Part shown: positions 14,144-28,477 of the stretch, in pieces
How the letters are laid out: each line of letters begins with the position of its first letter
Numbering within the stretch: position 1 is the first letter of the stretch
DNA from: an uncultured Myxococcales bacterium
GTDB taxonomy: Bacteria; Myxococcota; UBA4151
DNA: 29,003 bases
Direction of reading: 5' to 3'
Assembly: GCA_964013405.1 (NCBI GenBank)
Contig: CAXGWI010000029.1
Coordinates: 1 to 29,003 of the forward strand
Notes under the pieces: model-generated
What the model was told of the DNA's origin: nothing
Seen by the model: only the letters and a program-made list of their open reading frames with translations
Databases searched by the model: none
Program-made: the position numbers and the translations under genes

Positions 14144-14944
14144 ATGAACACTTTTCAGGGCACCAAGGACTACGTCTCCTCTCCCGAACTCAATCAAGCC
14201 GTGGCCTGTGCGTTGGTGCTTGGCCGCCCGCTGCTCGTCAAAGGAGAGCCGGGAACGGGTAAGACGCTCTTAGCCGGCGCGATCAGTGAGGCGCTCGAGC
14301 GGCCGCTGTTCCGCTGGCACGTCAAGTCCACCTCGAAAGCCCAGGAGGGGCTCTATCACTATGACGTCGTCGCTCGGTTGAACGACTCACGCTTTGGCGG
14401 TGGTGACGTCCACGATCTGCGCAGCTACATACGCATGGGTCCGCTGGGCATGGCCTTTCAACAAACCGCACCCGCCGTTGTCTTGGTCGACGAGATCGAC
14501 AAGGCGGATCCGGAATTTCCCAATGACCTGCTGCGGGAACTCGACGAGATTGCCTTCACCATCACCGAGTTGGATGAAACGGTGACGGCCACACACCGCC
14601 CCCTGGTGATCATCACCTCGAATGCAGAAAAAGAACTCCCCGACGCATTTCTGCGACGCTGCGTGTTTCATTTTATCGACTTTCCTGACCCCGAGCGGAT
14701 GCGACAGATTATCGATGTCCACCACCCGGACCTCAGTGAAACGTTGGTCGAAGCCGCTGCTGCTCGGTTCTTTCAACTCCGCCAGGAACGGGGCCTACGG
14801 AAACGGCCGAGCACAAGCGAGCTGGTGGATTGGCTTGCCGTCCTTGCCCACCATGGCGTCAAAGCCGACGACCTCGCCGCTGCAATGCCCTTCCTCGGCA
14901 CCCTGCTGAAAGACGAGCGGGACCTGCAGCGACTGGCCATCTAG
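14144..14944 (+). CDS. MoxR-family AAA+ ATPase (PA2707-like subfamily)
   Basis: N-terminus FQGTKDYVSS, Walker A GEPGTGKT, Walker B VLVDEIDK, sensor I ITSN, Arg finger DAFLRRC, and RKRPSTSELVDW. Alternative start TTG 14135. Confidence 0.92.
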   Translation: MNTFQGTKDYVSSPELNQAVACALVLGRPLLVKGEPGTGKTLLAGAISEALERPLFRWHVKSTSKAQEGLYHYDVVARLNDSRFGGGDVHDLRSYIRMGPLGMAFQQTAPAVVLVDEIDKADPEFPNDLLRELDEIAFTITELDETVTATHRPLVIITSNAEKELPDAFLRRCVFHFIDFPDPERMRQIIDVHHPDLSETLVEAAAARFFQLRQERGLRKRPSTSELVDWLAVLAHHGVKADDLAAAMPFLGTLLKDERDLQRLAI

Positions 14945-14960
14945 GGCCTGCAGGGCCGCC

Positions 14961-16118
14961 ATGTTCCTTCACTGGTTTATCAATCTGCGACTCGCTGGCG
15001 TCCCGGTGACGCTGACCGAGTGGCTCGACCTGGCCAAGGTGATGGAAGCGGGGCTGGTGGGCGATGTGGACCAACTCTACGGTGTCGGTCGTGCATTGTT
15101 GGCGAAGACCGAGAATCGCTACGACGACTACGATATCGCTTTCTCGGCCACCTTTGGCGAGGGCCAGATCCCGGTGGCCTTAAAGGATGAGTTCTCGGCC
15201 TGGCTCAAGGATCCGATCCCAGCCCAATTCGACGATGCGATGATGCGTCAACTCGCGGCCTTGGATCCGGAGGAATTGCGACGGCGTTTTGAGGAGATGC
15301 TGAAGAATCAACAAGAGCGCCATGATGGGGGTTCTCGCTATATTGGTACCGGCGGCACCTCGCCCTTCGGCAGCGGCGGCTACCACCCCTCGGGGGTTCG
15401 TGTTGGCCCAGGGGGCGGTCGAATGGCCGCCCGCGTGGCCCATCAGCGACGCTACCAAGAGTACCGGAGTGATGCCGTTCTCGACGTCCGCCAGTTCGAA
15501 GTCGCACTGAAGACGCTGCGCCATTTACTGCGCGAAGGGCCCGAAGAGTTACATCTCGACAAGACCATCGACAGGACCTGCCAGAACGCTGGCGAGATCG
15601 AGTTGGTCTTCGACCGAACTCGCCGTAACAGCCTGCGGTTGATCCTCATCATGGACGTGGGCGGCTCCATGGACCCCTTCGCGCAAATCTGCGACCGCCT
15701 CTTTTCCGCTGCCTCCAAAGCGAACCATTTTAAGTCCTTCAAAAACTATTGGTTCCACAACTGCGTCTACGAACGCTTGGGCACCAATATGGCACGGGGT
15801 GAGTTCGAGCCGACTTTTGAAGTCCTCGAAAAAGCCCACCCAGAGAGCTGTGTCATCTTCGTGGGTGATGCCTGCATGCACCCCTGGGAGTTGATGCAGC
15901 CAGGCTGGAGTATCGACCGCTGGGAGCGGGTTGAAAGACGGCGCGGGATCGACTGGATCAAGTCCTTCGCCGACCGGTTCGGGCGCTGTATCTGGCTGAA
16001 CCCAGAACCCACCCGGCACTGGCAGCACCCAACGATTGAGGCCATTGGCGGCCTGATCGATATGTACCCGCTGACGCTCGACGGACTGAGAGAAGGAATT
16101 CTGCGACTGCGGCGTTGA
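14961..16118 (+). CDS. VWA-domain protein (CoxE-like VWA), partner of the MoxR ATPase
   Basis: N-terminus MFLHWFINLRLAGVPVTLTEW, Gly-rich IGTGGTSPFG, MIDAS-like MDVGGSMD, FHNCVYE, FVGDA and IWLNPEP. Confidence 0.9.
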   Translation: MFLHWFINLRLAGVPVTLTEWLDLAKVMEAGLVGDVDQLYGVGRALLAKTENRYDDYDIAFSATFGEGQIPVALKDEFSAWLKDPIPAQFDDAMMRQLAALDPEELRRRFEEMLKNQQERHDGGSRYIGTGGTSPFGSGGYHPSGVRVGPGGGRMAARVAHQRRYQEYRSDAVLDVRQFEVALKTLRHLLREGPEELHLDKTIDRTCQNAGEIELVFDRTRRNSLRLILIMDVGGSMDPFAQICDRLFSAASKANHFKSFKNYWFHNCVYERLGTNMARGEFEPTFEVLEKAHPESCVIFVGDACMHPWELMQPGWSIDRWERVERRRGIDWIKSFADRFGRCIWLNPEPTRHWQHPTIEAIGGLIDMYPLTLDGLREGILRLRR

Positions 16119-16141: not shown

Positions 16142-16171
16142 TTGACTTCGCGGCCACACGCGGAGGATAAT
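16142..16171 (+). promoter_or_regulatory. Putative sigma70-type promoter for the ferredoxin-hcrCAB-like-rel unit
   Basis: TTGACT (16142-16147), 18-nt spacer, GATAAT (16166-16171), in the 77-bp gap upstream of the ferredoxin. A GGGGGAG RBS-like run follows. Confidence 0.55.
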
Positions 16172-16195
16172 CGTGTCGGATGGGGGAGATGGCCC

Positions 16196-16567
16196 ATGGC
16201 AACAATGATCACTGCAGATTGCATCAACTGTGGCGCCTGTGAGCCCGAATGCCCCAATCAGGCTATTCGAGAAGGTGACACTGTCTACGTGATCAATCCG
16301 AACCTGTGCACCGAGTGCGTTGGCTTTCATGGTGCGGAAGCCTGTCAGGAAGTTTGCCCCGTGGCCTGCTGTATCCCTAACCATGAACTCCGGGAAACCG
16401 AAGAGATCCTCCATGCTCGGGCGGTGAAACTCCACGGTGACGCTGAGATCCCCGCGACGGACGATCTCGACGGCGACACCAGCCGGTTCCGCAACGATGA
16501 TTGGGATAACGAAGAAGATCCGGATCAGGAGGCAGGCGAGGACTGGGCTCCCTACTGGGAAGACTGA
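16196..16567 (+). CDS. 2[4Fe-4S] ferredoxin, YfhL/Allochromatium (Alvin)-type, with an acidic C-terminal extension
   Basis: MATMITADCINCGACEPECP (CxxCxxCxxxCP) and CTECVGFHGAEACQEVCP (CxxC-x8-CxxxCP, the Alvin-type insertion). 123 aa, ending in DDWDNEEDPDQEAGEDWAPYWED. Confidence 0.9.
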   Translation: MATMITADCINCGACEPECPNQAIREGDTVYVINPNLCTECVGFHGAEACQEVCPVACCIPNHELRETEEILHARAVKLHGDAEIPATDDLDGDTSRFRNDDWDNEEDPDQEAGEDWAPYWED

Positions 16568-16597
16568 TCCCCCGATCTGAGGCCCTGGAGGTCACCA

Positions 16598-17128
16598 TTG
16601 GCCGAGAGCGTCCTCAAACTAAAGATTAATGGCTTCGTGCGAAGAGTTGCCGTCTCCGATCAGGAGACGCTTCTTGAGGTTTTGCGCTACACCCTCGGGC
16701 TGACCGGTTCGAAGCAGGGCTGTGACAAAGGCGATTGCGGCGCTTGTACCGTCCTCGTGGACGGCGAGCCCGTGCTCGCCTGCCTGAGCCTGGCAAAACG
16801 CAATGCCGATAAAGAGATCCTAACCATTGAGGGATTGAGTGGTCCGGAGGGTCCCCACGCTGTTCAGGATGCCTTCGACAAGGCCGGGGCGATGCAATGC
16901 GGGTTCTGCCAGCCCGGTATGATCTTGTCCGCCGCTGCCCTCCTCGAACGAGATCCCGAGCCGGATGACGAAGCCATCCGCCACGCCTTGTCCGGTAACC
17001 TGTGTCGCTGCACAGGATATACACGCATTTTTACCGCCGTGCGGCAGGCCGCAGGTATCGAAGCCGACCGCAAAGGTGTGGACCCCCGCCCGGCCCCAGC
17101 CCCTCCCGTGGATCCGAAATTGCCATGA
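16598..17128 (+). CDS. Xanthine-oxidase-family 2x[2Fe-2S] subunit (HcrC-like, 4-hydroxybenzoyl-CoA reductase gamma-like)
   Basis: GGAGG then TTG start. Motifs GSKQGCDKGDCGACTV, QCGFCQPG and LSGNLCRCTGY. Confidence 0.9.
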   Translation: MAESVLKLKINGFVRRVAVSDQETLLEVLRYTLGLTGSKQGCDKGDCGACTVLVDGEPVLACLSLAKRNADKEILTIEGLSGPEGPHAVQDAFDKAGAMQCGFCQPGMILSAAALLERDPEPDDEAIRHALSGNLCRCTGYTRIFTAVRQAAGIEADRKGVDPRPAPAPPVDPKLP

Positions 17129-19500
17129 GCGACAAGAAGAAGCGCGACCAAGGCGGTGCAGACATCGTCAAAGGTAAAGCCAGTCCGATCCACGGGGTCG
17201 ATCTGCCCGGCGGTGACGTCATCGGACGCCCTTTGCGCAAAGCGGACGGGCTCGACAAGGCGACGGGGCTTGCCCTCTACACCGACGACATCCAGTTCCC
17301 CGATATGCTCCATGCGAAGATCCTTCGCTCACCCCTGCCTCACGCCCGCATCAAGTCCATCGATTACAGCGAAGCCCTCGCAATGGATGGCGTTGTCGAT
17401 GTGATGGTCGGCAGCGAGTTGCCGATTCCCTACTGCGTTATTCCCTGGACGCGAGATGAAACGGCCCTCTGTACGGACAAGGTTCGCTTCATCGGCGATG
17501 GTGTGGCGGCCGTGGCGGCGGTGGACGAAGCCACGGCCATCGAAGCCTGCAAGCGGATCAAGGTGGACTACGAAGCCCTCAAGCCCATCCTCACCATCGA
17601 AGCGGCCAAGCAGCCTCCCGAGGACGAAGCGATTCACGTGGGCAACAGGCGGGGTAATCAGCACAAATACGTCGATCTCAGCTTTGGCGACCTCGATGCC
17701 GGCTTTCGTCACTCCACCTCGATCGCCCACGACGACTACTACTTTCACGGGACGACCCACGCCCCGATCGAACCCCATTGCGCCATCGGCAAACCCGAAC
17801 CTGGCGGCCAACTCTGTATCATCAGCGCCACCCAAGTCCCCCATTACCTGCAGCGGGAGTTGGCCCGTGTGCTCGGTATGGCGCAGCAGAACATCCGGGT
17901 CATCCAGCCGGCTTTAGGCGGCGCCTTCGGTGGCAAATCCGAGCCCTTCGACTTGGAGTTTGTCGTCGCCCACCTGGCCCGTAAAACCGGCCGCCCAGTG
18001 AAGTGCCTCTACACCCGGGAAGAGGTCTTCTACTCCCACCGTGGACGGCATCCGATGGCGATGAATTTCAAAGTCGGGCTCGACGATGAGGGCAAGATTC
18101 AAGCGGTGCGCTCAAAAATCGATCTGGATGGTGGCGCCTACTCGTCCTTCGGCCTCGTCACGACCTATTATGCCGGCCAGTTGCTCACCGGGCCCTACGA
18201 CTTCGCCAGCTATGGTTTCACCAGCACGCGCTACTACACGAATAAGCCTTGTTGCGGCCCCAAACGAGGGCATGGCTCGGTCCAACCCCGCTTTGCCTTT
18301 GAGTGCGCTCTCGATGAAGCCGCAGCGGGCTTGGGCTTGGACCCGATGACGGTTCGGGAGCGTAACACCATGCCTCGGGTCGCAACCACGGTGAATGGTA
18401 TGCGGGTCCAATCCAACGGCTTTCTCGCCTGCCTCCAAGCGGCCCGAAAGGCCAGTGGCTGGGATGAGAAGTGGGGCAAGTTGCCCCGGGGTCGCGGCAT
18501 CGGCGTGGCCGGGAGTATGTACATCTCCGGCACCAACTATCCGGTCTATCCCAATGAGATGCCCCAGAGCGGCGTGACCGTACAGCTGGATCGCTCGGGT
18601 CGAGCCCTGGTCCTTTGCGGTGCCAGCGATATCGGCCAGGGCTCCGATTCCATGTTCACCTACATCGTTGCGGAAGAACTGGGCATCGAGCCCGGCCATG
18701 TACGCATCGTCTCCTCGGACACGGACCTGACCCCGGTGGATCTGGGTGCCTACTCGTCGCGCATCACCTTTATGGCGGGCAACGCCTGCATCGACGCCTG
18801 CCGCCGCCTGCGCAAGTTGCTGCTCGAAGCGGCAGCAACAGCGCTTGGCCAATCGGCTAAAAGGCTGCGACTTGCCGGCGGGTATGCGGTGGCTGTAGAC
18901 GACACCGCTGTGTCGCTCCCCATGCAAGAAGTCTTTCGCCTTGCGGAGGCCGAGAACGGCACGCTCAGTGCCAGCGGTTGGTACAATACCCCGCTGCTGG
19001 GAGGCGAGTATCGGGGCGGGACCATCGGCTCCTCGCCGGCTTACAGCTTCACCTGTCACGTGGCTGAGGTGGACATCGATCTAGAGACCGGTGAGTTACG
19101 GGTGCCCAAGGTCTGGGTCGCCCACGACTGCGGCCGAGCCCTCAACCCCGTCATCGTCGAGGGCCAAATGGAAGGCTCCACCTACATGGGTGCAGCCGAG
19201 TTGATGATGGAAGACCAAGACTTCTATCCGGCCGACCACGCCGCACCGGGCCTTCACTTAGGGCCGAGTCTCCTCGACTATCCCATCCCTACCTCCAGCG
19301 AGGTGCCCGAGTTCGAAGCCCTCATCATCGAGAGCTTAGACCCGGAGGGCCCTTACGGTGCGAAAGAGGCTGGAGAAGGCCCTTTGCACTCCACCATTCC
19401 GGCCATCGCCAATGCCATCCATGACGCCGTCGGTATTCGTCTAAAAACCCTACCGATCACCGCCGCGAAGATCTGGCGGGCCCTGCAGGAGACTCACTGA
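17125..19500 (+). CDS. Xanthine-oxidase-family molybdopterin-binding subunit (HcrA-like, 4-hydroxybenzoyl-CoA reductase alpha-like)
   Basis: ATGA overlap start. Motifs KILRSPLPHARI, ATQVPHY, LGGAFGGK, GPKRGHG, DIGQGS, GAYSSRITFMAGNA, ALNPVIVEGQ and GAKEAGEG. RGHG and YSSRxTFMxGNA resemble HcrA/HbaC more than XdhB or CoxL. Confidence 0.88.
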   Translation: MSDKKKRDQGGADIVKGKASPIHGVDLPGGDVIGRPLRKADGLDKATGLALYTDDIQFPDMLHAKILRSPLPHARIKSIDYSEALAMDGVVDVMVGSELPIPYCVIPWTRDETALCTDKVRFIGDGVAAVAAVDEATAIEACKRIKVDYEALKPILTIEAAKQPPEDEAIHVGNRRGNQHKYVDLSFGDLDAGFRHSTSIAHDDYYFHGTTHAPIEPHCAIGKPEPGGQLCIISATQVPHYLQRELARVLGMAQQNIRVIQPALGGAFGGKSEPFDLEFVVAHLARKTGRPVKCLYTREEVFYSHRGRHPMAMNFKVGLDDEGKIQAVRSKIDLDGGAYSSFGLVTTYYAGQLLTGPYDFASYGFTSTRYYTNKPCCGPKRGHGSVQPRFAFECALDEAAAGLGLDPMTVRERNTMPRVATTVNGMRVQSNGFLACLQAARKASGWDEKWGKLPRGRGIGVAGSMYISGTNYPVYPNEMPQSGVTVQLDRSGRALVLCGASDIGQGSDSMFTYIVAEELGIEPGHVRIVSSDTDLTPVDLGAYSSRITFMAGNACIDACRRLRKLLLEAAATALGQSAKRLRLAGGYAVAVDDTAVSLPMQEVFRLAEAENGTLSASGWYNTPLLGGEYRGGTIGSSPAYSFTCHVAEVDIDLETGELRVPKVWVAHDCGRALNPVIVEGQMEGSTYMGAAELMMEDQDFYPADHAAPGLHLGPSLLDYPIPTSSEVPEFEALIIESLDPEGPYGAKEAGEGPLHSTIPAIANAIHDAVGIRLKTLPITAAKIWRALQETH

Positions 19501-20480
19501 TGCTTCGCCTGCCTGCCTTTGATCTGCTTGAGCCCACGAGCCTCGAAGAAGCCCTGCACTTGCTCGCCGAGCATGGGGGTGATGCCATGCCCATCGCCGG
19601 CGGCACCGACCTGTTGCCCAACATGAAGCACGAACTCTTCACGCCCAAGGTGCTGGTCAGCCTCACTTCGATCCCTGCTCTACGGGCCATCGAAGACCTG
19701 GGGGATGCATGGCGACTCGGCGCAGGCTGTCCCTTAGGCGAACTGGCCAATCATCCGGGCTTACAACAGAGCCTCCCGGCCCTTGCCGAAGCCCTCGGTG
19801 CTGTCGGTGGCCCCCACCACCGACGCATGGGGACGCTGGGCGGCAATCTCTGTTTGGATACCCGCTGTCTCTATTACAATCAGACCTTCCAATGGCGAGA
19901 AGCGCTGGGCTTCTGCCTCAAGAAGGATGGTGACGTCTGTCATGTCGCCGGTGGGCGCAAGTGCGTAGCCGCCGCGTCTAATGACAGCGCCCCCCCACTC
20001 TTGGTCTACGATGCCACCGTCGAAATCGTCGGCCCCGGCGGTGCCCGGACCTTGCCGGTCCGGGAGTTCTACCATCCGGATGGCATCTCCAATACCCGCC
20101 TCGAGGATGGCGAACTGGTGGTAGCCCTACGGGTCGCTAAGCCCAGCCAAGGAACCCGTGCAGCCTTTCACAAACTGCGCCGGCGCGGTGCGATCGACTT
20201 TCCCCTACTCAACATGGCGGTCTCGCTTCGCTTGGACGAACGCGGCACCTTGGTGGCCTTGAGCGCGGCGGTGAGCGCACTCGCTGCTCGCCCCAATCTG
20301 GTCAAAGGGCTGGACCGTTTCCTTGGGCAGGTGCCTGATGAGGCACTCGTCGAAGCCATCGCAAACCGCTGTCGACGCGGGTCGGTCCCCCTGACCAATC
20401 TGGCCACCGACCCGGAATGGCGTCGAGCCATGGTGCCTGTGTTTATCAAGCGCCTCCTCCAGCGCTGCTTGGATGCCTGA
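19500..20480 (+). CDS. Xanthine-oxidase-family FAD subunit with an extra [4Fe-4S] loop (HcrB-like)
   Basis: FAD motifs IAGGTDL and MGTLGGNLC. Four-Cys insert RCLYYNQTFQWREALGFCLKKDGDVCHVAGGRKC, followed by KLRRRGAIDFP. Confidence 0.88.
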   Translation: MLRLPAFDLLEPTSLEEALHLLAEHGGDAMPIAGGTDLLPNMKHELFTPKVLVSLTSIPALRAIEDLGDAWRLGAGCPLGELANHPGLQQSLPALAEALGAVGGPHHRRMGTLGGNLCLDTRCLYYNQTFQWREALGFCLKKDGDVCHVAGGRKCVAAASNDSAPPLLVYDATVEIVGPGGARTLPVREFYHPDGISNTRLEDGELVVALRVAKPSQGTRAAFHKLRRRGAIDFPLLNMAVSLRLDERGTLVALSAAVSALAARPNLVKGLDRFLGQVPDEALVEAIANRCRRGSVPLTNLATDPEWRRAMVPVFIKRLLQRCLDA

Positions 20481-22660
20481 TGAGCGAGGCTTTTTCCGCA
20501 CCGCGTATCACCGACATCACCGACCAGATGGGGGTTACAGCAGGCTCCGAAGCGGCGGACCTCGTCAATGTCGCCTTCATCTATTCGGCCCAATGCCACA
20601 GTGGGCAGAAACGGAAATCCGGGGAGCCCTATCTCAACCACCCCCTCGAAGTGGCCTATATCCTCGCTGAGTGGGGTCTGGACCCTGCGACCATCGCAAC
20701 GGGCCTCCTTCACGACACGGTCGAAGACACCCACGCCACCCTGGAAGAGATCGAAGAGCAGTTTGGCATTGAGATTCGTCATCTGGTAGACGGGGTGACA
20801 AAGATCTCCCAAATCGAGTTCAGTTCAGCGGAACAAAAAGCCGCCGATAACTTTCGCAAAATGGTCGTCGCGATGGCCCAGGACATCCGAGTGCTTGTGG
20901 TGAAACTGGCCGATCGCACCCATAATATGCGGACCCTCGATCACATGCCCTCGGCAAAACAGAAGCGCATCGCTCAAGAGACGATGGACATCTATGCGCC
21001 GCTCGCCGACCGACTGGGTATGAATGGGGTCAAAACCGAACTACAGGATCTGAGTTTCCGCTACCTGTTCGCAGAAGAATACGCTGAGTTGCTCGGCCAA
21101 ATGGAGGCCATCCATCCCGAGCGGCAACAGTATGTCGATGGCACCCTCGCCGCGATTCGCGCCCGTCTCGAAGAGGCAGGCCTCCCCTTCAGCAAGATTT
21201 ATGGCCGAGCCAAACACCTGTATTCCATTTGGATGAAGATGCAGAAGAAGGGTGTCACGCTCGAGCAAGTCTACGACGCCGTCGCCTTTCGCGTCATCGT
21301 CTCTGATATCGCTGCCTGCTACGGTGTATTGGGCCACATCCACGCGCTCTGGCGTCCCGTGCCCGGCCGGTTCAAAGACTTCATCGCCCTGCCCAAAAAG
21401 AACGGTTACCGGAGCCTTCACACAACGGTGGCCGGGCCTAGCGGCAGTCTCATCGAGATCCAGATCCGCACCCAGGAGATGGACGCGGTGGCGGAGAGCG
21501 GTTTGGCGGCCCACTGGCAATACAAAGAGGGAGGGCATCAACCCAGCAAGGACTTGGCCTATGAATGGCTCAACCGCTTGCGGGAATGGCAGCAAGAGGT
21601 CGACGATCCCTCTGAGTTTCTCGAGACCGTCCGCAGCGAGCTCTTTCACGAAGAGGTCTTCGTCTTCACACCGGCTGGGGATGTCATTCAACTTCCCCGC
21701 GGTGCCACGGCGGTGGATTTCGCCTTCGCCGTCCATACAGAGGTGGGGCTGCATTGTGTCGGCGCCAAAGTGAATGGACGAATGGTGCCGCTGAGAAAGC
21801 CGCTCGACTCCGGAGACCGGGTCGAGGTGATGACCGATCCTCGCCGGCTGCCCAATCGAGAGTGGCTCGATTTCGTGGTGACTTCTCGGGCTCGCACCCG
21901 CATCCGAACAGCGATCCGCAGGCGGGAGCAAGAGGAGGCCGCTGAAATCGGCAGGAACCTCCTAGAACGGGCCCTCAAAGCCAATGGAAGTTCGATCAGC
22001 GCCATGACCAGATCCGGTGACCTTGATCGCTACATTGAGCGTTGGCGTGGCGGTCACACCCTCAATGATCTCCTGGCCCAGGTTGGCTTCAACAAGATCT
22101 CCACCGAGGCGATCGTTGCAAAATTGCTCCCAGAACAACAAACGATCCCCCCCAGATCGGTGGCGGACCAAGGGGCTTCGAGCCTCGCTGCCCGGCTCTT
22201 TGGCCGGCGTAAATCTCGTCAGAACAAGAGCGGCGTTGAAGTCGGTGGACTCGATAATGTCCTCATCACCTTCGCCAACTGCTGCAGTCCGCTGCCCGGG
22301 GACCAGATCGTCGGCTATGTCACCCGGGGCCAAGGGGTCCGAGTCCATCGTCTCGCCTGTGAGACACTCACCGACTCCAGTCCCCAGCGCATGGTTGAAG
22401 TCCGCTGGTCCGCAGAGACCGACGTCACGCACCAGGTCTCGATCCGCCTGGTCTCCGACGACCGACCAGGTATCTTGGCGAACGTCTCGATCTGCTTCCA
22501 AGATCTCAGCATCAACATTTCCGAGGCGAACTGTCGCGTGCTCGGTGATGGCACAGCTATTCACACCTTCCGCTTCGGCATCGAGAGCCTTGAAAAGCTA
22601 GAGACCATTTTGCAACGACTGAAGTCTCTCAAGGGGATTTCCAGAGTGGAACGGGCCTGA
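20480..22660 (+). CDS. rel: Long bifunctional (p)ppGpp synthetase/hydrolase (Rel/SpoT homolog)
   Basis: HD domain (GQKRKSGEPYLNHP, LLHDTVED, VKLADRTHNMRT); synthetase (GRAKHLYSI, RFKD, KKNGYRSLHT, EIQIRT); TGS (VFTPAG, GAKVNG); ZFD/CC (NCCSPLPGD...VHRLAC); ACT (DRPGILANV). Starts at a TGATG overlap. Confidence 0.95.
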   Translation: MSEAFSAPRITDITDQMGVTAGSEAADLVNVAFIYSAQCHSGQKRKSGEPYLNHPLEVAYILAEWGLDPATIATGLLHDTVEDTHATLEEIEEQFGIEIRHLVDGVTKISQIEFSSAEQKAADNFRKMVVAMAQDIRVLVVKLADRTHNMRTLDHMPSAKQKRIAQETMDIYAPLADRLGMNGVKTELQDLSFRYLFAEEYAELLGQMEAIHPERQQYVDGTLAAIRARLEEAGLPFSKIYGRAKHLYSIWMKMQKKGVTLEQVYDAVAFRVIVSDIAACYGVLGHIHALWRPVPGRFKDFIALPKKNGYRSLHTTVAGPSGSLIEIQIRTQEMDAVAESGLAAHWQYKEGGHQPSKDLAYEWLNRLREWQQEVDDPSEFLETVRSELFHEEVFVFTPAGDVIQLPRGATAVDFAFAVHTEVGLHCVGAKVNGRMVPLRKPLDSGDRVEVMTDPRRLPNREWLDFVVTSRARTRIRTAIRRREQEEAAEIGRNLLERALKANGSSISAMTRSGDLDRYIERWRGGHTLNDLLAQVGFNKISTEAIVAKLLPEQQTIPPRSVADQGASSLAARLFGRRKSRQNKSGVEVGGLDNVLITFANCCSPLPGDQIVGYVTRGQGVRVHRLACETLTDSSPQRMVEVRWSAETDVTHQVSIRLVSDDRPGILANVSICFQDLSINISEANCRVLGDGTAIHTFRFGIESLEKLETILQRLKSLKGISRVERA

Positions 22661-24356: not shown

Positions 24357-25496
24357 ATGCGCCAGTTACTGGTCATTCTTCTCAGTGTCCTCCTCAGCCT
24401 CTCCAGTCTGAGTTCGGTACCGGCTATGGCCGCAGCACCGGTCCTCGCCACAGATGGCAGCACACTTTTCGCCGCGAAACGCAGCAAAAAGAAAAAGCGA
24501 CGGCGGAAGAAGAAGCGCCGGCCAAAGCGAAAGAAGAAAAAGAAGCAGGCCAAACCGAAAGCCAAGCCCGAACCGGTGGCAGAGCCAGAGACCAAAGAAG
24601 AGCCTACAACTGCACCGGCAGCCGCTCCGGCACCGGCAGCCGCTCCGGCTGAAGCCGAAGACGAAGAAGAGCGACCGGGTTTGGCCGTGCTCGACATGGA
24701 GGTGAAGGCCGGCTTCGATGAGGGTGTCGCCTCGATGCTCAATGAGAACATGCTCGGCATCATCAATGATAGCGGCGTCTTCTCCACCGTGATCTCTGGC
24801 AGTGATATGCGCAGCATGTTGGATCTCGAGCAGCAGAAGGCCGCGCTGGGCTGTGCTGAGGATTCCTGCATCGCCCAGCTTGGTGGTGCCCTTGGCGTCC
24901 CCTACATGTTCAGTTCCAGCATCGGCAGCTTCGCCGGCAAGTTCCTCCTCAACGTGAAGATCGTCGCCGTGGACGAGGCCAAAGTCGTCGCCCGGGCCAA
25001 CGCAGTGATGGAGAATGAAAGTGCGCTCCTCGCCGGCCTTCCCGACCTGGTGAATGAAGCGCTGGAGAAAGGCTTCGGCGTCGTTGCGGAAGATGATGAC
25101 GATGAGGAAACGACCGATGCAACGGCAGAGAGCGAGGCCGGGGCGCCTACCGAGAATGAAACAGGCGAAGCCGCGCCAGCGGTCGGGAAGAAGGCCGGCG
25201 ACGGCAAATCCATGGGCCAGCGTCTCACGAGCCCGGGCTTTCTCATGGGGGCAGGCATCCTGCTGGCCGGCGGCGCCGTGATCACGCCCGGCGTCACGCT
25301 CAACCCAACGGACGATGCGATGCTTTCGAAGCTCGATGAGTACAAGGCTGCAAGCGATGCGGATGATGCGACCCGATTGGGCAACGAGGTATCCAGCATG
25401 ATTCAGATGCGCCAAATCGCTGGCCCCGTTGGACTGCTTCTCGTTGCGGGTGGTGGATGGATCGCCGGGTGGAATCTCTTCGTGGGTGAGCAATGA
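24357..25496 (+). CDS. Exported protein: signal peptide, polybasic tract, CsgG/TolB_N-like domain, acidic linker, two C-terminal hydrophobic segments
   Basis: AAGGA RBS; signal peptide ending in AMA. Domain LAVLDM...VISGSDMRSMLDLEQQKAALGCAEDSCIAQLGGALGV...SIGSFAGKFLLNVKIV, a pattern common in myxobacterial envelope proteins. Confidence 0.7.
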   Translation: MRQLLVILLSVLLSLSSLSSVPAMAAAPVLATDGSTLFAAKRSKKKKRRRKKKRRPKRKKKKKQAKPKAKPEPVAEPETKEEPTTAPAAAPAPAAAPAEAEDEEERPGLAVLDMEVKAGFDEGVASMLNENMLGIINDSGVFSTVISGSDMRSMLDLEQQKAALGCAEDSCIAQLGGALGVPYMFSSSIGSFAGKFLLNVKIVAVDEAKVVARANAVMENESALLAGLPDLVNEALEKGFGVVAEDDDDEETTDATAESEAGAPTENETGEAAPAVGKKAGDGKSMGQRLTSPGFLMGAGILLAGGAVITPGVTLNPTDDAMLSKLDEYKAASDADDATRLGNEVSSMIQMRQIAGPVGLLLVAGGGWIAGWNLFVGEQ

Positions 25497-28477
25497 ACCA
25501 GGAGCGACGCACCCAAGGCCTGTTACCCCTACTTCTCATTGTCTCCTGCACGGTGCCCAACGACTTTGAGCAGACCTGGCGAACCAATAAGCACGACCGA
25601 AACCGGGAGCAACCAGCCAACTGTGGTGATGGGGACCTCAACGCGAACGAAGGCGAAAGATGCGATGACGGCAACAGGGCGTCGGGCGATGGCTGTGATG
25701 AGCTATGTCAGCCAGAAGGTCGCTGCGGCAACAACACGGTCGACCAGGGCGAAGAATGTGACGACGGCAACCTCGAAAGTGGTGATGGCTGCGACGAGCA
25801 GTGCCTAGAAGAAAAAGGCGCAGAGACCTGCGGAAACAATACGGTCGACGAAGGCGAAACCTGCGATGACGGCAACCGGAGCAATGGTGACGGCTGTAAC
25901 GAAGACTGCCAGACCGAAGAGGACGGCCCATGTGGGAACAGCACGGTCGACGAGGGCGAAGAATGTGACGACGGCAATCAGATCGATGACGACCTCTGTG
26001 ACAACAACTGCCAACTCATCAACTGTGCTGAACCGGGCTCTGAGGGGGAAGTCGGTGATAAACGGTGCAGCCGGATCGACGACGACGCCGTCTGTGTCGT
26101 GGCAGACACGGACCACCCGGTCTGCCTCCTGCGGGACCTCGGCTACGAAACCCCAGAATTTCTGAGGGCTTCTCTCTTCCACTTTTGTGCCCGTTCGGAC
26201 GAGGGTCCGATCCCAGAAGAAGCCCATCGCTGCCGAAACAGCGACGACTGCGACGGCGGAGAACAGTGCTATCTCTTCGATGTCCCCGATAAGTTCCAAG
26301 GCCTCTGCTGGGTTTCTGAAGAGCCGGACTTCCCAGAGGACAGACCCCCGAATCCACTGGTACCTGGTTGGGCGGTCCATACCAATCCGGGTGGCGTGGA
26401 TGATGGGAGCGACTCCACCTGCAAGCCGATGGCTTGTAGCGGCCTGCACGAGGGGGATTACTGCCGCGTGAGGGAAGCGCTCGAGCATGACACGCTGTCT
26501 GCCTACTGTTCAGACTCGATCTCGCAAGACGTGGTGGATGATGCGGGAAGCGGCGTCTGTGTCATCGCCGAATGCACGGGCAACAATGAGCATGTCTCAC
26601 GGCCCTGCAAGGAGATCTTCTCTGTCAATGAAGCTGTTTGCAACCACGATGGCTACTGCGTCGGTCTCGGCGGTGACGATGACAAGATGTGCAGTGAGGA
26701 GGATCTGCCCTATGCCTGTGGGGAGCTCTGCCAGCCAGCCCATTGCCGCAATTGTCACGGCGATGGCTGTCAAGGTTGCGGAGGTGCAGCCTTTGATCTG
26801 TGTGAATGGCCGCCCGGCGAGAACGATCTTCGATGCCTGTCATGTCTTGATGACAACGATTGCCCCCATGACGGCGGTGCCAACGACGGCAGTTCCGACT
26901 ACCGCTGTTTCAAGCGCCCGGGACAAGCCCAAAACGATCCCGGAACCTGTCGTCTGAGTTGCGAGGGAGACGACGACTGCCGCGTTCGTCATGGCGGACG
27001 CTGTGTCGGCCCTCAAGGTGGGCAACGCTTCTGTGAACTGCAAGGAGGTGGGCAACAGCATGGCCCGGGCTGCGGTAGGGACAACGACTGTCAATCCCAT
27101 GAGCGTTGTGATCAGGATGAGGGTCGTTGCGTCCCCCGTCGCTGCGACCAAGGCTGCCCTGAAGGCACCCGTTGCAATCAGGACCACCAACACTGTGAAC
27201 CGGAGCACGGTGGTGGTGGCGGGCCGGAGATGATCGAGATTTGTGGAAACAACGATGAGTGCCGTGCTCAGCACTACTGTCAACAATGGGCCCCAGAAGA
27301 TCCAGGCATCTGCCTGCCCAACAATTGCCGAGACAACCCCTGTCCGGGTGGGCACTCCTGTGAGGACCGAGGCGACCACGGTGAATGCGTTTTAATGGAT
27401 GGGTGCCAGTTGGAAGACAGAGGTTGCGGCCACCCAATCGCCTTACGGGAGTGCGTGCAAATCCCCGGGCATGCCGGTGGTGAGCTCTGTGAGTATCAGG
27501 CGAACACCGATGACGGCCGCTGTCGAAGTAACGACGACTGTAGGGGTGGTGTCTGCCGGCCGACGAAAGGCGATTGCATCAACTGGGGCGATGCTTGTGA
27601 CGGGGCTCCTACCCGCTTCCCGGGCTACTGCCGAGATGTCCACCAAGCGGAGGCGCAAAACTGCAATCCGCTCAATGCAAACGAGTGCAACAATGGATAT
27701 CGGTGCGACCAGGCCCAGGATCATGTGGGGCAAGAAGGCCTAGCAGCGGAACGCGGCATTTGCGCTGGTAACGCCTGTGAGCGCAATGGAGACTGTGCCT
27801 TCGGGCAAGCCTGCTTCTTCGATGGCGAAGAGGGCCAGTGCAAAGGCCGACTCCTTTGTCGCGGGCCGACCGAGGAGGCCTGTCCCGAATCTCAGGCCTG
27901 TGTCCCCCTTTATGGCTATGGCCTCCACGGCGGCGACTTCTGCGTCGAAGGGCGGAGTTGCGATGCTCATGATGATTGTGCTGACGGCTTCGGTTGTAGC
28001 AATGGCCTCTGCATCGGTCATCACCACGATTGTGAAGGACTCGGCGGCGTCCGGTTCGACTCGATGTGTGTCCCGACGATTCGTGCAGCCGGTGACGAAG
28101 ATCGGAACGATTGGCTCTCCCTGGACGAAGGGGGGGACGACTGGCGGACGTTTGGTTTTGGGGGTGTCATCGACTTCGTTCTTGAAGAGCGAGACCAAGA
28201 CGTCTTTCGTTATCTAGATGAAGATGACTCCGGGACTCGGACGTTTACGGTCAGATCGAGCGATCAGCGCCAACATCACATCCCACCGGTGAAGTGCTTT
28301 CTCGTCCAGTTCAATGAGGAGGGCACCCAGGTCCTAGACGAAGACGATGCTTGGGAAGGAGAGGGCTGCACCCTCGAAGTGGAGATCAACGAAGGCGAAC
28401 CCTATCTCTTCGTGATTCACCGGCTTGATATGCTCGAGGACCACCCCATTGGAGACCTCCGTTTACGGGCCGATTAA
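25493..28477 (+). CDS. Cys-rich lipoprotein with four Myxococcus cysteine-rich (DUF4215-type) repeats, many small disulfide modules and a C-terminal beta domain
   Basis: ATGA overlap; lipobox LIVS-C; four CG[DN]...EGExCDDGN...C...C repeats; many CxxDxDC-type modules. Confidence 0.85.
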   Translation: MNQERRTQGLLPLLLIVSCTVPNDFEQTWRTNKHDRNREQPANCGDGDLNANEGERCDDGNRASGDGCDELCQPEGRCGNNTVDQGEECDDGNLESGDGCDEQCLEEKGAETCGNNTVDEGETCDDGNRSNGDGCNEDCQTEEDGPCGNSTVDEGEECDDGNQIDDDLCDNNCQLINCAEPGSEGEVGDKRCSRIDDDAVCVVADTDHPVCLLRDLGYETPEFLRASLFHFCARSDEGPIPEEAHRCRNSDDCDGGEQCYLFDVPDKFQGLCWVSEEPDFPEDRPPNPLVPGWAVHTNPGGVDDGSDSTCKPMACSGLHEGDYCRVREALEHDTLSAYCSDSISQDVVDDAGSGVCVIAECTGNNEHVSRPCKEIFSVNEAVCNHDGYCVGLGGDDDKMCSEEDLPYACGELCQPAHCRNCHGDGCQGCGGAAFDLCEWPPGENDLRCLSCLDDNDCPHDGGANDGSSDYRCFKRPGQAQNDPGTCRLSCEGDDDCRVRHGGRCVGPQGGQRFCELQGGGQQHGPGCGRDNDCQSHERCDQDEGRCVPRRCDQGCPEGTRCNQDHQHCEPEHGGGGGPEMIEICGNNDECRAQHYCQQWAPEDPGICLPNNCRDNPCPGGHSCEDRGDHGECVLMDGCQLEDRGCGHPIALRECVQIPGHAGGELCEYQANTDDGRCRSNDDCRGGVCRPTKGDCINWGDACDGAPTRFPGYCRDVHQAEAQNCNPLNANECNNGYRCDQAQDHVGQEGLAAERGICAGNACERNGDCAFGQACFFDGEEGQCKGRLLCRGPTEEACPESQACVPLYGYGLHGGDFCVEGRSCDAHDDCADGFGCSNGLCIGHHHDCEGLGGVRFDSMCVPTIRAAGDEDRNDWLSLDEGGDDWRTFGFGGVIDFVLEERDQDVFRYLDEDDSGTRTFTVRSSDQRQHHIPPVKCFLVQFNEEGTQVLDEDDAWEGEGCTLEVEINEGEPYLFVIHRLDMLEDHPIGDLRLRAD
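25622..26015 (+). repeat. Four tandem ~100-nt repeats encoding Myxococcus cysteine-rich repeats
   Basis: Recurring acggtcgac(c/g)a(g/a)ggcgaa...tg(t/c)ga(c/t)gacggcaa units; protein CGxxTVDEGEECDDGN. Confidence 0.85.

Follow-up and report, generated by a model that had tools for sequence, protein, structure and literature searches.

Xanthine-oxidase-family enzymes run mostly oxidatively. The 4-hydroxybenzoyl-CoA reductase (hereafter 4-HBCR) of Thauera aromatica, which takes electrons from reduced ferredoxin and is described as oxygen-sensitive, is one of two known reductive dehydroxylases in the family; the second is Ucdh, and the substrates of both share a para electron-withdrawing thioester or ester (PMC12771579). 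In Rhodopseudomonas palustris, hbaB is required for the use of 4-hydroxybenzoate (PMC6974649), and a presumptive reductive dehydroxylation to benzoyl-CoA is reported for Aromatoleum EbN1 in anoxic and oxic growth (PMC9765128). Bins of SAR324 hold boxBC together with a 4-HBCR-like gene (PMC4782131). Here, a stretch of 29,003 nucleotides from an uncultured Myxococcales bacterium (contig CAXGWI010000029.1, hereafter the window) was analyzed, with a focus on a molybdenum (Mo) enzyme trimer encoded behind a small ferredoxin gene. A previous inspection of the letters (the sequence-only reading) had taken 4-HBCR to be the reductive member of its family, a standing that Ucdh now shares, and had proposed the trimer as a new reductive dehydroxylase. 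The comparisons below indicate that the trimer is probably, though far from certainly, a divergent 4-HBCR that feeds benzoyl-CoA to the aerobic Box pathway.

For each subunit the best family model was that of the corresponding HcrCAB protein, with scores of 815.7 bits for the Mo subunit (TIGR03194, cut-off 994.55), 298.6 bits for the FAD subunit (TIGR03195, cut-off 404.55) and 184.1 bits for the 2Fe-2S subunit (TIGR03193, cut-off 257.8). The best PDB match of the Mo subunit by sequence was Thauera 4-HBCR (1rm6, E 4.8e-174), which also headed a fold search (TM score 0.82, 40% identity); the AlphaFold model, with a mean pLDDT of 73.7 and active-site loops under 50, was used solely for that search. 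The xanthine oxidase family's Mo, FAD and two [2Fe-2S] domains are present, as is the catalytic Glu751 of GAKExxEG, and the Mo-proximal residues Q237, E273, Y349, R381, H383, Y543-S-S-R546, E748 and E751 are common to 1rm6_A, alignment to which also confirmed YSSRITFMAGNA in the Mo subunit as previously described. In an alignment to 1rm6_B, residues Cys123, Cys139, Cys147 and Cys155 of the FAD subunit occupy the positions of its four loop cysteines, in agreement with the HcrB-type [4Fe-4S] loop that had been noticed from the letters. The same four-cysteine pattern was found in 64 of 80 loci of the clade described next.

The active-site loop of the Mo subunit reads GPKRGHG where 1rm6_A has GAMRGHG, a difference that the sequence-only reading had given correctly. 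GPKRGHG was present in all of the top 120 homologues and in 80 of 80 GTDB loci, whereas 173 canonical HcrA-type sequences contained GAMRGHG (156), GAFRGHG (15) or GPMRGHG (2), and never GPKR. Loci of the GPKR clade, at least 80 in number, were found in Gemmatimonadota, Planctomycetota, Myxococcota, Acidobacteriota, Eisenbacteria and Chloroflexota, and include one from a cultured organism, Saltatorellus ferox (L083), whose genome (G069) has boxB. In a quick IQ-TREE phylogeny with 42 rows, 17 fell in the GPKR clade and 10, protein P0369 of Aromatoleum EbN1 among them, in the canonical HcrA clade; the two clades received 99 and 100, respectively, in the Shimodaira-Hasegawa-like approximate likelihood ratio test, and together with four unnamed proteins formed a single 31-row clade with a support of 99. 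FastTree on 84 rows gave the same relation; both are quick trees, run without an approximately unbiased test. The Mo subunit thus grouped with HcrA and not with PaoC, Xdh or CoxL, in a clade of its own outside canonical HcrA, and, combined with the equivalog scores below cut-off, this upholds the sister clade that had been claimed. By its sequence, the trimer belongs to a widespread sister lineage of 4-HBCR that lies outside the equivalog. The proposal of a myxobacterium-like host also held, in that the nearest named tree rows and two myxobacterial domain matches point to Myxococcota. No experimental study or description of the GPKR clade was found in the full-text literature searched, whose coverage leaves out most subscription journals; the same applies to the phenylalanine/tyrosine route considered below.

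Co-occurrence with benzoyl-CoA-consuming pathways (sinks) was surveyed in 251 same-phylum genomes at least 85% complete, a set that includes one genome marked unpublished (G233) on which no claim rests alone. Carriers, defined by a Mo-subunit match at E<=1e-220, numbered 53. Genes boxB or bcrB were found in 52 of them (47 with boxB, 20 with bcrB, 32 with boxB only), as against 32 of the 198 non-carriers. The exception, G140, is 86% complete, and leaving out three carrier matches of 46-47% identity gave 49 of 50. The relation was also seen within families: the five carriers among the 18 genomes of f9 are the same five that have boxB, the seven carriers in f5 (19 genomes) fall among its eight boxB genomes, all five carriers in f14 (33 genomes) fall among its seven bcrB genomes, and in f10 a sink was found in 8/8 carriers versus 9/87 other genomes. 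Physical linkage was observed as well. Seven of 103 clade loci, a set in which some genomes are possibly counted twice, include a bcrB homologue with 62% identity or more, and TIGR models confirmed bcr, dch, had or oah genes next to the trimer in four loci (L098, L100, L103 and L133). These bcr-embedded clade members have the same pocket motifs as the window's enzyme. Four other loci (L127, L128, L129 and L130) hold divergent clusters resembling class I benzoyl-CoA reductase, with 200-315 bits for the bcrB model, possibly an unnamed subclass of that enzyme; a bzd-type reductase is also present in L128.

The genome of the window, 94% complete, contains a boxR-boxC-boxB cluster (C168:3-3305 and C10:48386-49165) in which boxB is cut by an assembly break into halves of 415.6 and 318 bits, located at two contig ends with 10 nt in common; boxB is whole in 5/5 same-family genomes. 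Scores exceeded the cut-offs for boxC (724.9 bits, cut-off 712.3), the boxR-like gene (228.9, 204), XdhC (163.4, 161.6) and coxA, encoding subunit I of an aa3-type cytochrome c oxidase (709.2, 670.75), and one KorAB-like 2-oxoacid:ferredoxin oxidoreductase is encoded. A benzoyl-CoA-consuming pathway is thus present in this genome, and the previous statement that no aromatic-degradation genes lie nearby holds for the window and fails for the genome, where boxB, boxC and boxR are on other contigs. The anaerobic pathway was not found in the 94% recovered (no bcrB, oah at best 43.6 bits; class II Bam was not searched separately), and no boxA lies beside the box genes, a genome-wide search with a boxA model not having been made.

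Together with the subunit anatomy, the clade position and the linkage to sinks, the Box and cytochrome c oxidase genes fit a scheme drawn by analogy with Thauera 4-HBCR, in which the trimer would work reductively, on 4-hydroxybenzoyl-CoA and under air. A low-potential ferredoxin, probably the general Alvin-type one of the cell, would be reduced by the 2-oxoacid:ferredoxin oxidoreductase and would pass electrons through the [4Fe-4S] loop, FAD and the two [2Fe-2S] clusters to Mo, where the para-hydroxyl of 4-hydroxybenzoyl-CoA would leave as water. The benzoyl-CoA formed would then be ring-opened by the oxygen-using Box pathway.

Several observations weigh against this scheme. All three subunits fail the score for HcrCAB equivalog membership. 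In the pocket, Lys271 replaces an Arg (248-equivalent position) that is present in 173/173 canonical sequences, Lys380 replaces Met357, and the channel loop 463-481 differs from canonical HcrA (HcrA residue numbers were counted from the alignment to 1rm6_A). The [4Fe-4S] loop by itself does not fix the direction of the reaction, because PaoB of the oxidative Escherichia coli enzyme carries such a cluster too. An oxygen-sensitive type of enzyme sits uneasily in an oxygen-respiring host, and relatives are not independent, so that the significance of the co-occurrence is overstated. Fifty other carrier genomes were reached from 50 of the 80 named loci. Either boxB or bcrB was found in 20 of them, a divergent bcrB-like gene (200-315 bits) was the sole match in 18, and the remaining 12 showed neither (no search for paa genes was made); G053 and G058, both Gemmatimonadota chromosomes in a single contig, are among the 12. 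Finally, a match to the benzoate-family ligase model TIGR02262 was obtained in only 24/53 carriers, with five candidates scored per genome, and no benzoate- or 4-hydroxybenzoate-CoA ligase over the cut-off was found in the window's genome, whose best match (224.7 bits, cut-off 375.25) is an acetate-CoA ligase and not of the HbaA type.

The leading guess for the source of 4-hydroxybenzoyl-CoA is tyrosine, via chain elongation and beta-oxidation. A LeuA-like synthase, together with a fused LeuCD-like isomerase and a LeuB-like dehydrogenase, would add one carbon to phenylpyruvate or 4-hydroxyphenylpyruvate, as HphABCD do, though in this case toward breakdown. Decarboxylation of the product would give (4-hydroxy)phenylpropionyl-CoA, and beta-oxidation of the latter (4-hydroxy)benzoyl-CoA; the GPKR reductase would take off the hydroxyl in a cell that respires oxygen, with ring cleavage left to BoxB or Bcr. 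Such a route would stand in for the homogentisate pathway and dispense with an aryl-CoA ligase. The trimer would then act as the tyrosine branch of a catabolism of aromatic amino acids that is as yet undescribed, present in Myxococcota and probably in further phyla with few cultured members; this is a tentative proposal that we regard as possible and, on balance, doubtful.

The proposal stems from a LeuA-like protein without regulatory domain, found in 70/73 boxB genomes versus 21/178 without boxB, and in 47/53 carriers. In 6/103 clade loci the trimer has a neighbor that matches this protein at 50% identity or more, and other copies lie in bcr clusters. De novo leucine synthesis does not explain this gene, because IlvD was not seen in 33 of 40 LeuA-like genomes, the window's included (the 40 were hand-chosen from 91). 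LysX was below cut-off in 5/5 genomes tested. A fused LeuCD-like gene was present in 5/5 and a LeuB-like gene in 4/5. In the window's genome the LeuA-like synthase (C21:28668-29891, behind a thiolase), the fused LeuD-LeuC-like isomerase (C3:71172-73091) and the LeuB-like dehydrogenase (C1:92267-93322) are all below their family cut-offs. HphA condenses 4-hydroxyphenylpyruvate with acetyl-CoA, and its size-determining position is Ala, as compared to Leu in isopropylmalate synthase and His in homocitrate synthase (PMC12961565). By our own mapping of that position, the LeuA-like protein has Ala in 18/18 sequences; its other four pocket positions are unlike HphA, and one of them, a His, is that of homocitrate synthase. 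Canonical hmgA (at least 248 bits) occurs in 0/53 carriers versus 60/198 other genomes, with weak matches in three carriers, and was not found in the window's genome; because a single family contributes 57 of the 72 hmgA matches, this exclusion is inflated by kinship. These data suggest a catabolic homologation yielding C6-C3 thioesters and from them benzoyl-CoA and 4-hydroxybenzoyl-CoA, although the LeuA-like gene might instead serve conversion of valine to leucine or an unusual citrate-synthase role. As to other entries, the single aromatic ammonia-lyase of the genome is a histidine ammonia-lyase (638.9 bits, cut-off 539.15), which leaves none for phenylalanine or tyrosine; two genomic matches of an HppD/hydroxymandelate motif, a weak test, were other proteins; and tblastn gave no genomic match for IorAB, UbiD or PaaK-like genes. 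Two of the divergent reductase clusters L127-L130 carry LeuA-like and iorAB-like genes. A gene of the Glu/Leu/Phe/Val dehydrogenase type lies near the trimer in 12/103 clade loci (e.g. L064:8004-9203), which would fit an upstream deamination of amino acids.

Alternatively, the trimer could remove a hydroxyl or amino group reductively from some other aroyl-CoA, or from a wider range of them, releasing benzoyl-CoA or a close analogue; candidates are 2-aminobenzoyl-CoA from tryptophan, methyl-, methoxy- or dihydroxy-benzoyl-CoA, and p-coumaroyl-CoA. We consider this unlikely, if worth keeping in mind. The two lysines in place of Arg and Met near Mo and the rebuilt channel loop would be accounted for, as would the 12 of 50 carrier genomes that miss both boxB and bcrB, the kynureninase-like genes flanking the trimer in 6/103 loci (at least 61% identity, plus one weak match) and the UbiD gene and PaaK-like ligase flanking one subclade. 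By contrast, members with the same pocket are embedded in standard bcrABCD-dch-had-oah clusters, the exclusion of hmgA suggests a tyrosine-type substrate, and the known substrates share the para thioester or ester (PMC12771579). A different substrate had also been proposed previously, from the apparent lack of a benzoyl-CoA pathway; the pocket does differ, but that argument is weakened by the Box pathway of this genome and the clade's tracking of sinks. In L043, L046, L055, L075, L086 and L096, xdhC, mocA-like and kynureninase-like genes follow the trimer, which hints at tryptophan breakdown.

PaoABC of E. coli, a trimer of the same family, has a [4Fe-4S] cluster in its FAD subunit, and the window's trimer could in principle be a similar oxidoreductase of aromatic aldehydes or heterocycles that supplies aromatic acids to the benzoyl-CoA pathway, with electrons leaving through the loop. 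Respiration of oxygen by the host and the oxidative habit of most of the family (PMC12771579) would suit such an enzyme. It is nevertheless improbable, given that the PaoC model scored 243.6 bits (cut-off 1180) as compared to 815.7 for the HcrA model and the PaoA model 142 (cut-off 322), that the trees place the Mo subunit with HcrA, that the FAD subunit matches HcrB at E 1.6e-64 and PaoB at 2e-22 with a loop that follows HcrB cysteine by cysteine, and that a free-acid product needs an aryl-CoA ligase, not found in the window's genome or in 29/53 carriers.

The ferredoxin gene directly upstream encodes, as claimed, an Alvin-type 2[4Fe-4S] protein. It passes the YfhL model NF033683 (100.9 bits, cut-off 86), and its best PDB chains are 3exy and 1blu (E about 7e-24), with which it aligns across residues 2-82, including the C-terminal helix region; 1rgv was also matched. 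Its cysteines, C9/12/15/19 and C38/41/50/54 with an 8-residue spacer, follow CxxCxxCxxxCP and CxxC-x8-CxxxCP. A tail of about 40 residues (16442-16564), with 17 D/E in 41, ends in PYWED, and same-family copies align along the full 123 residues. A genome-wide motif scan found no other small CxxCxxCxxxCP ferredoxin. The ferredoxin is present in all five same-family genomes; the order is AAA-VWA-ferredoxin-relA in G001, G002 and G003 and VWA-ferredoxin-relA in G005, in each case without the trimer, which occupies the ferredoxin/relA slot only in G000 and G004. No deletion scar of the trimer was detected in G001 (scores 20 and 25, random mean 25). Across the clade, the ferredoxin adjoins the trimer in 1/103 loci; in 64 of the first 80, the sequence available upstream of the 2Fe-2S gene exceeds 600 nt. 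Nor would co-transcription be the sign of a functional unit, because relA overlaps the FAD stop codon. The ferredoxin is therefore a resident household gene of the locus whose linkage to the trimer is local history, and it was rejected as a dedicated partner; it may serve the trimer as a general low-potential carrier. The former proposal of a self-contained operon, with the ferredoxin as dedicated donor and outside any benzoyl-CoA pathway, is the least credible of those considered, since the adjacency, common orientation and promoter-like site in the window's genome and G004, and the acceptance of reduced ferredoxin by Thauera 4-HBCR (PMC12771579), are outweighed by the retention of the ferredoxin before relA in 4/4 same-family genomes without trimer, the 1/103 adjacency, a ferredoxin-like gene within 6 kb in only 3/76 canonical HcrA loci, and boxBCR in the genome. 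BoxB might also be served by the Alvin-type ferredoxin, as no boxA lies beside the box genes. In six Gemmatimonadota loci (L049, L053, L054, L057, L081 and L101), the Mo gene has a different, non-Alvin dicluster ferredoxin 5-7 kb upstream.

Features of the locus are listed in the table. The order 2Fe-2S, Mo, FAD read from the letters agrees with the open reading frames (ORFs) and is that of 49/76 canonical HcrA loci, the other 27 being incomplete. Consecutive trimer genes overlap at their stop and start codons, as does the relA start with the FAD-subunit stop, and a 30-nt gap separates the ferredoxin gene from the 2Fe-2S gene in the same orientation. The promoter considered plausible before the ferredoxin is present as a consensus match, but its frequency is at chance level (one match, 1.8 +/- 1.3 expected from shuffles). 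The sole near-identical marine metatranscriptome contig over 14000-23000 spans 16178-16513, within the ferredoxin region only, and begins seven bases past the -10 box; this is a weak hint in favor of the promoter, as contigs cannot establish transcript starts. The sequencing runs are of low cover, and RNA contigs missing over the trimer carry no weight.

Table. Features of the trimer locus in the window
Feature	Position	Strand	Evidence
Sigma-70-like promoter match TTGACT-18-GATAAT	16142..16171	+	Consensus match 10/12
Alvin/YfhL-type 2[4Fe-4S] ferredoxin, acidic C-terminal tail	16196..16567	+	Profile and PDB matches
2x[2Fe-2S] subunit, HcrC-like, TTG start	16598..17128	+	TIGR03193 184.1 bits; Fer2 and Fer2_2 domains
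Mo-cofactor subunit, HcrA-like, GPKRGHG clade	17125..19500	+	TIGR03194 815.7 bits; 1rm6; trees
Active-site loop GPKRGHG, Mo-subunit residues 378-384	18256..18276	+	120/120 homologues, 80/80 loci
FAD subunit, HcrB-like	19500..20480	+	TIGR03195 298.6 bits; 1rm6_B E 1.6e-64
Inserted loop Cys123/139/147/155, predicted [4Fe-4S] site	19866..19964	+	Alignment to 1rm6_B
Context: MoxR-type AAA ATPase and VWA/CoxE-like gene	14144..16118	+	Kept before ferredoxin with or without trimer
Context: relA/spoT	20480..22660	+	TIGR00691 768.8 bits, cut-off 499.2

The AAA and VWA/CoxE-like pair resembles the CoxD/CoxE maturation pair of Mo-containing carbon monoxide dehydrogenase; it is retained in relatives without the trimer and hence not tied to it. 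Elsewhere the window encodes an 880-residue protein with no family match (511-3159, plus strand), a 2,200-residue protein bearing TPR (3228-9842, minus strand) and a 994-residue protein with myxobacterial cysteine-rich repeats (25493-28477, plus strand). In other clade loci the trimer may be broken up: in L184 (6820-8285; G093, a single-contig genome) the 2Fe-2S gene is, by eye, seemingly split by a transposase-like ORF, and in L154-L156, L158-L160, L188 and L189 of family f5 the Mo gene lacks neighboring 2Fe-2S and FAD genes; in this family the trimer is split or incomplete.

4-HBCR is regarded as belonging to anaerobic phenol degraders and as sensitive to oxygen; a sister clade of it is found here in 53/251 same-phylum genomes and at least five other phyla, with BoxB, the sole sink found in most same-phylum carriers (32/53), needing oxygen. 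What was not anticipated is this tie to an oxygen-dependent pathway, and the possible phenylalanine/tyrosine route, rather than the neighboring ferredoxin. If the chemistry is that of 4-HBCR, dehydroxylation followed by epoxidation of 4-hydroxy aromatics under aerobic or microoxic conditions would be common in soils, sludge and sea, and the clade would be a source of a phenol dehydroxylase that possibly tolerates oxygen. Should the homologation route be real, phenylalanine and tyrosine would have a general breakdown pathway not known before, and LeuA/LeuB/LeuCD-like sets now annotated as leucine synthesis in genomes without IlvD would gain a role.

Among known systems, PaoABC differs from the window's trimer, whose PaoC-model score is far below the cut-off and whose FAD subunit is nearer to HcrB than to PaoB. 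The BoxB/BoxC/BoxR set of the Box pathway is represented by clustered boxB, boxC and boxR-like genes, with no benzoate-CoA ligase over cut-off. Ucdh (UcdCFO) of Enterocloster bolteae likewise dehydroxylates a phenol reductively by means of a xanthine-oxidase-family trimer; as described, its substrate is a free lactone, its electrons come from NADH and it has no [4Fe-4S] loop (PMC12771579, PMC11760930), which sets it apart from the loop-bearing enzyme of the window. Cyanobacterial HphABCD is biosynthetic, whereas a catabolic use is proposed here, the likeness to HphA being one of published positions only. HcrCAB of T. aromatica (1rm6) and HbaBCD of R. palustris share with the window's enzyme the FeS-Mo-FAD order, the four-Cys FAD loop, the superclade, the Q/E/Y/RGHG/YSSR/GAKExxEG residues and the tie to benzoyl-CoA sinks. 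The window's enzyme differs by an identity of about 40%, by scores below each of the equivalog cut-offs and by having GPKR in place of GAMR and Lys in place of an invariant Arg, and its clade differs in an often missing aryl-CoA ligase and in BoxB as the sole sink found in those 32 carriers.

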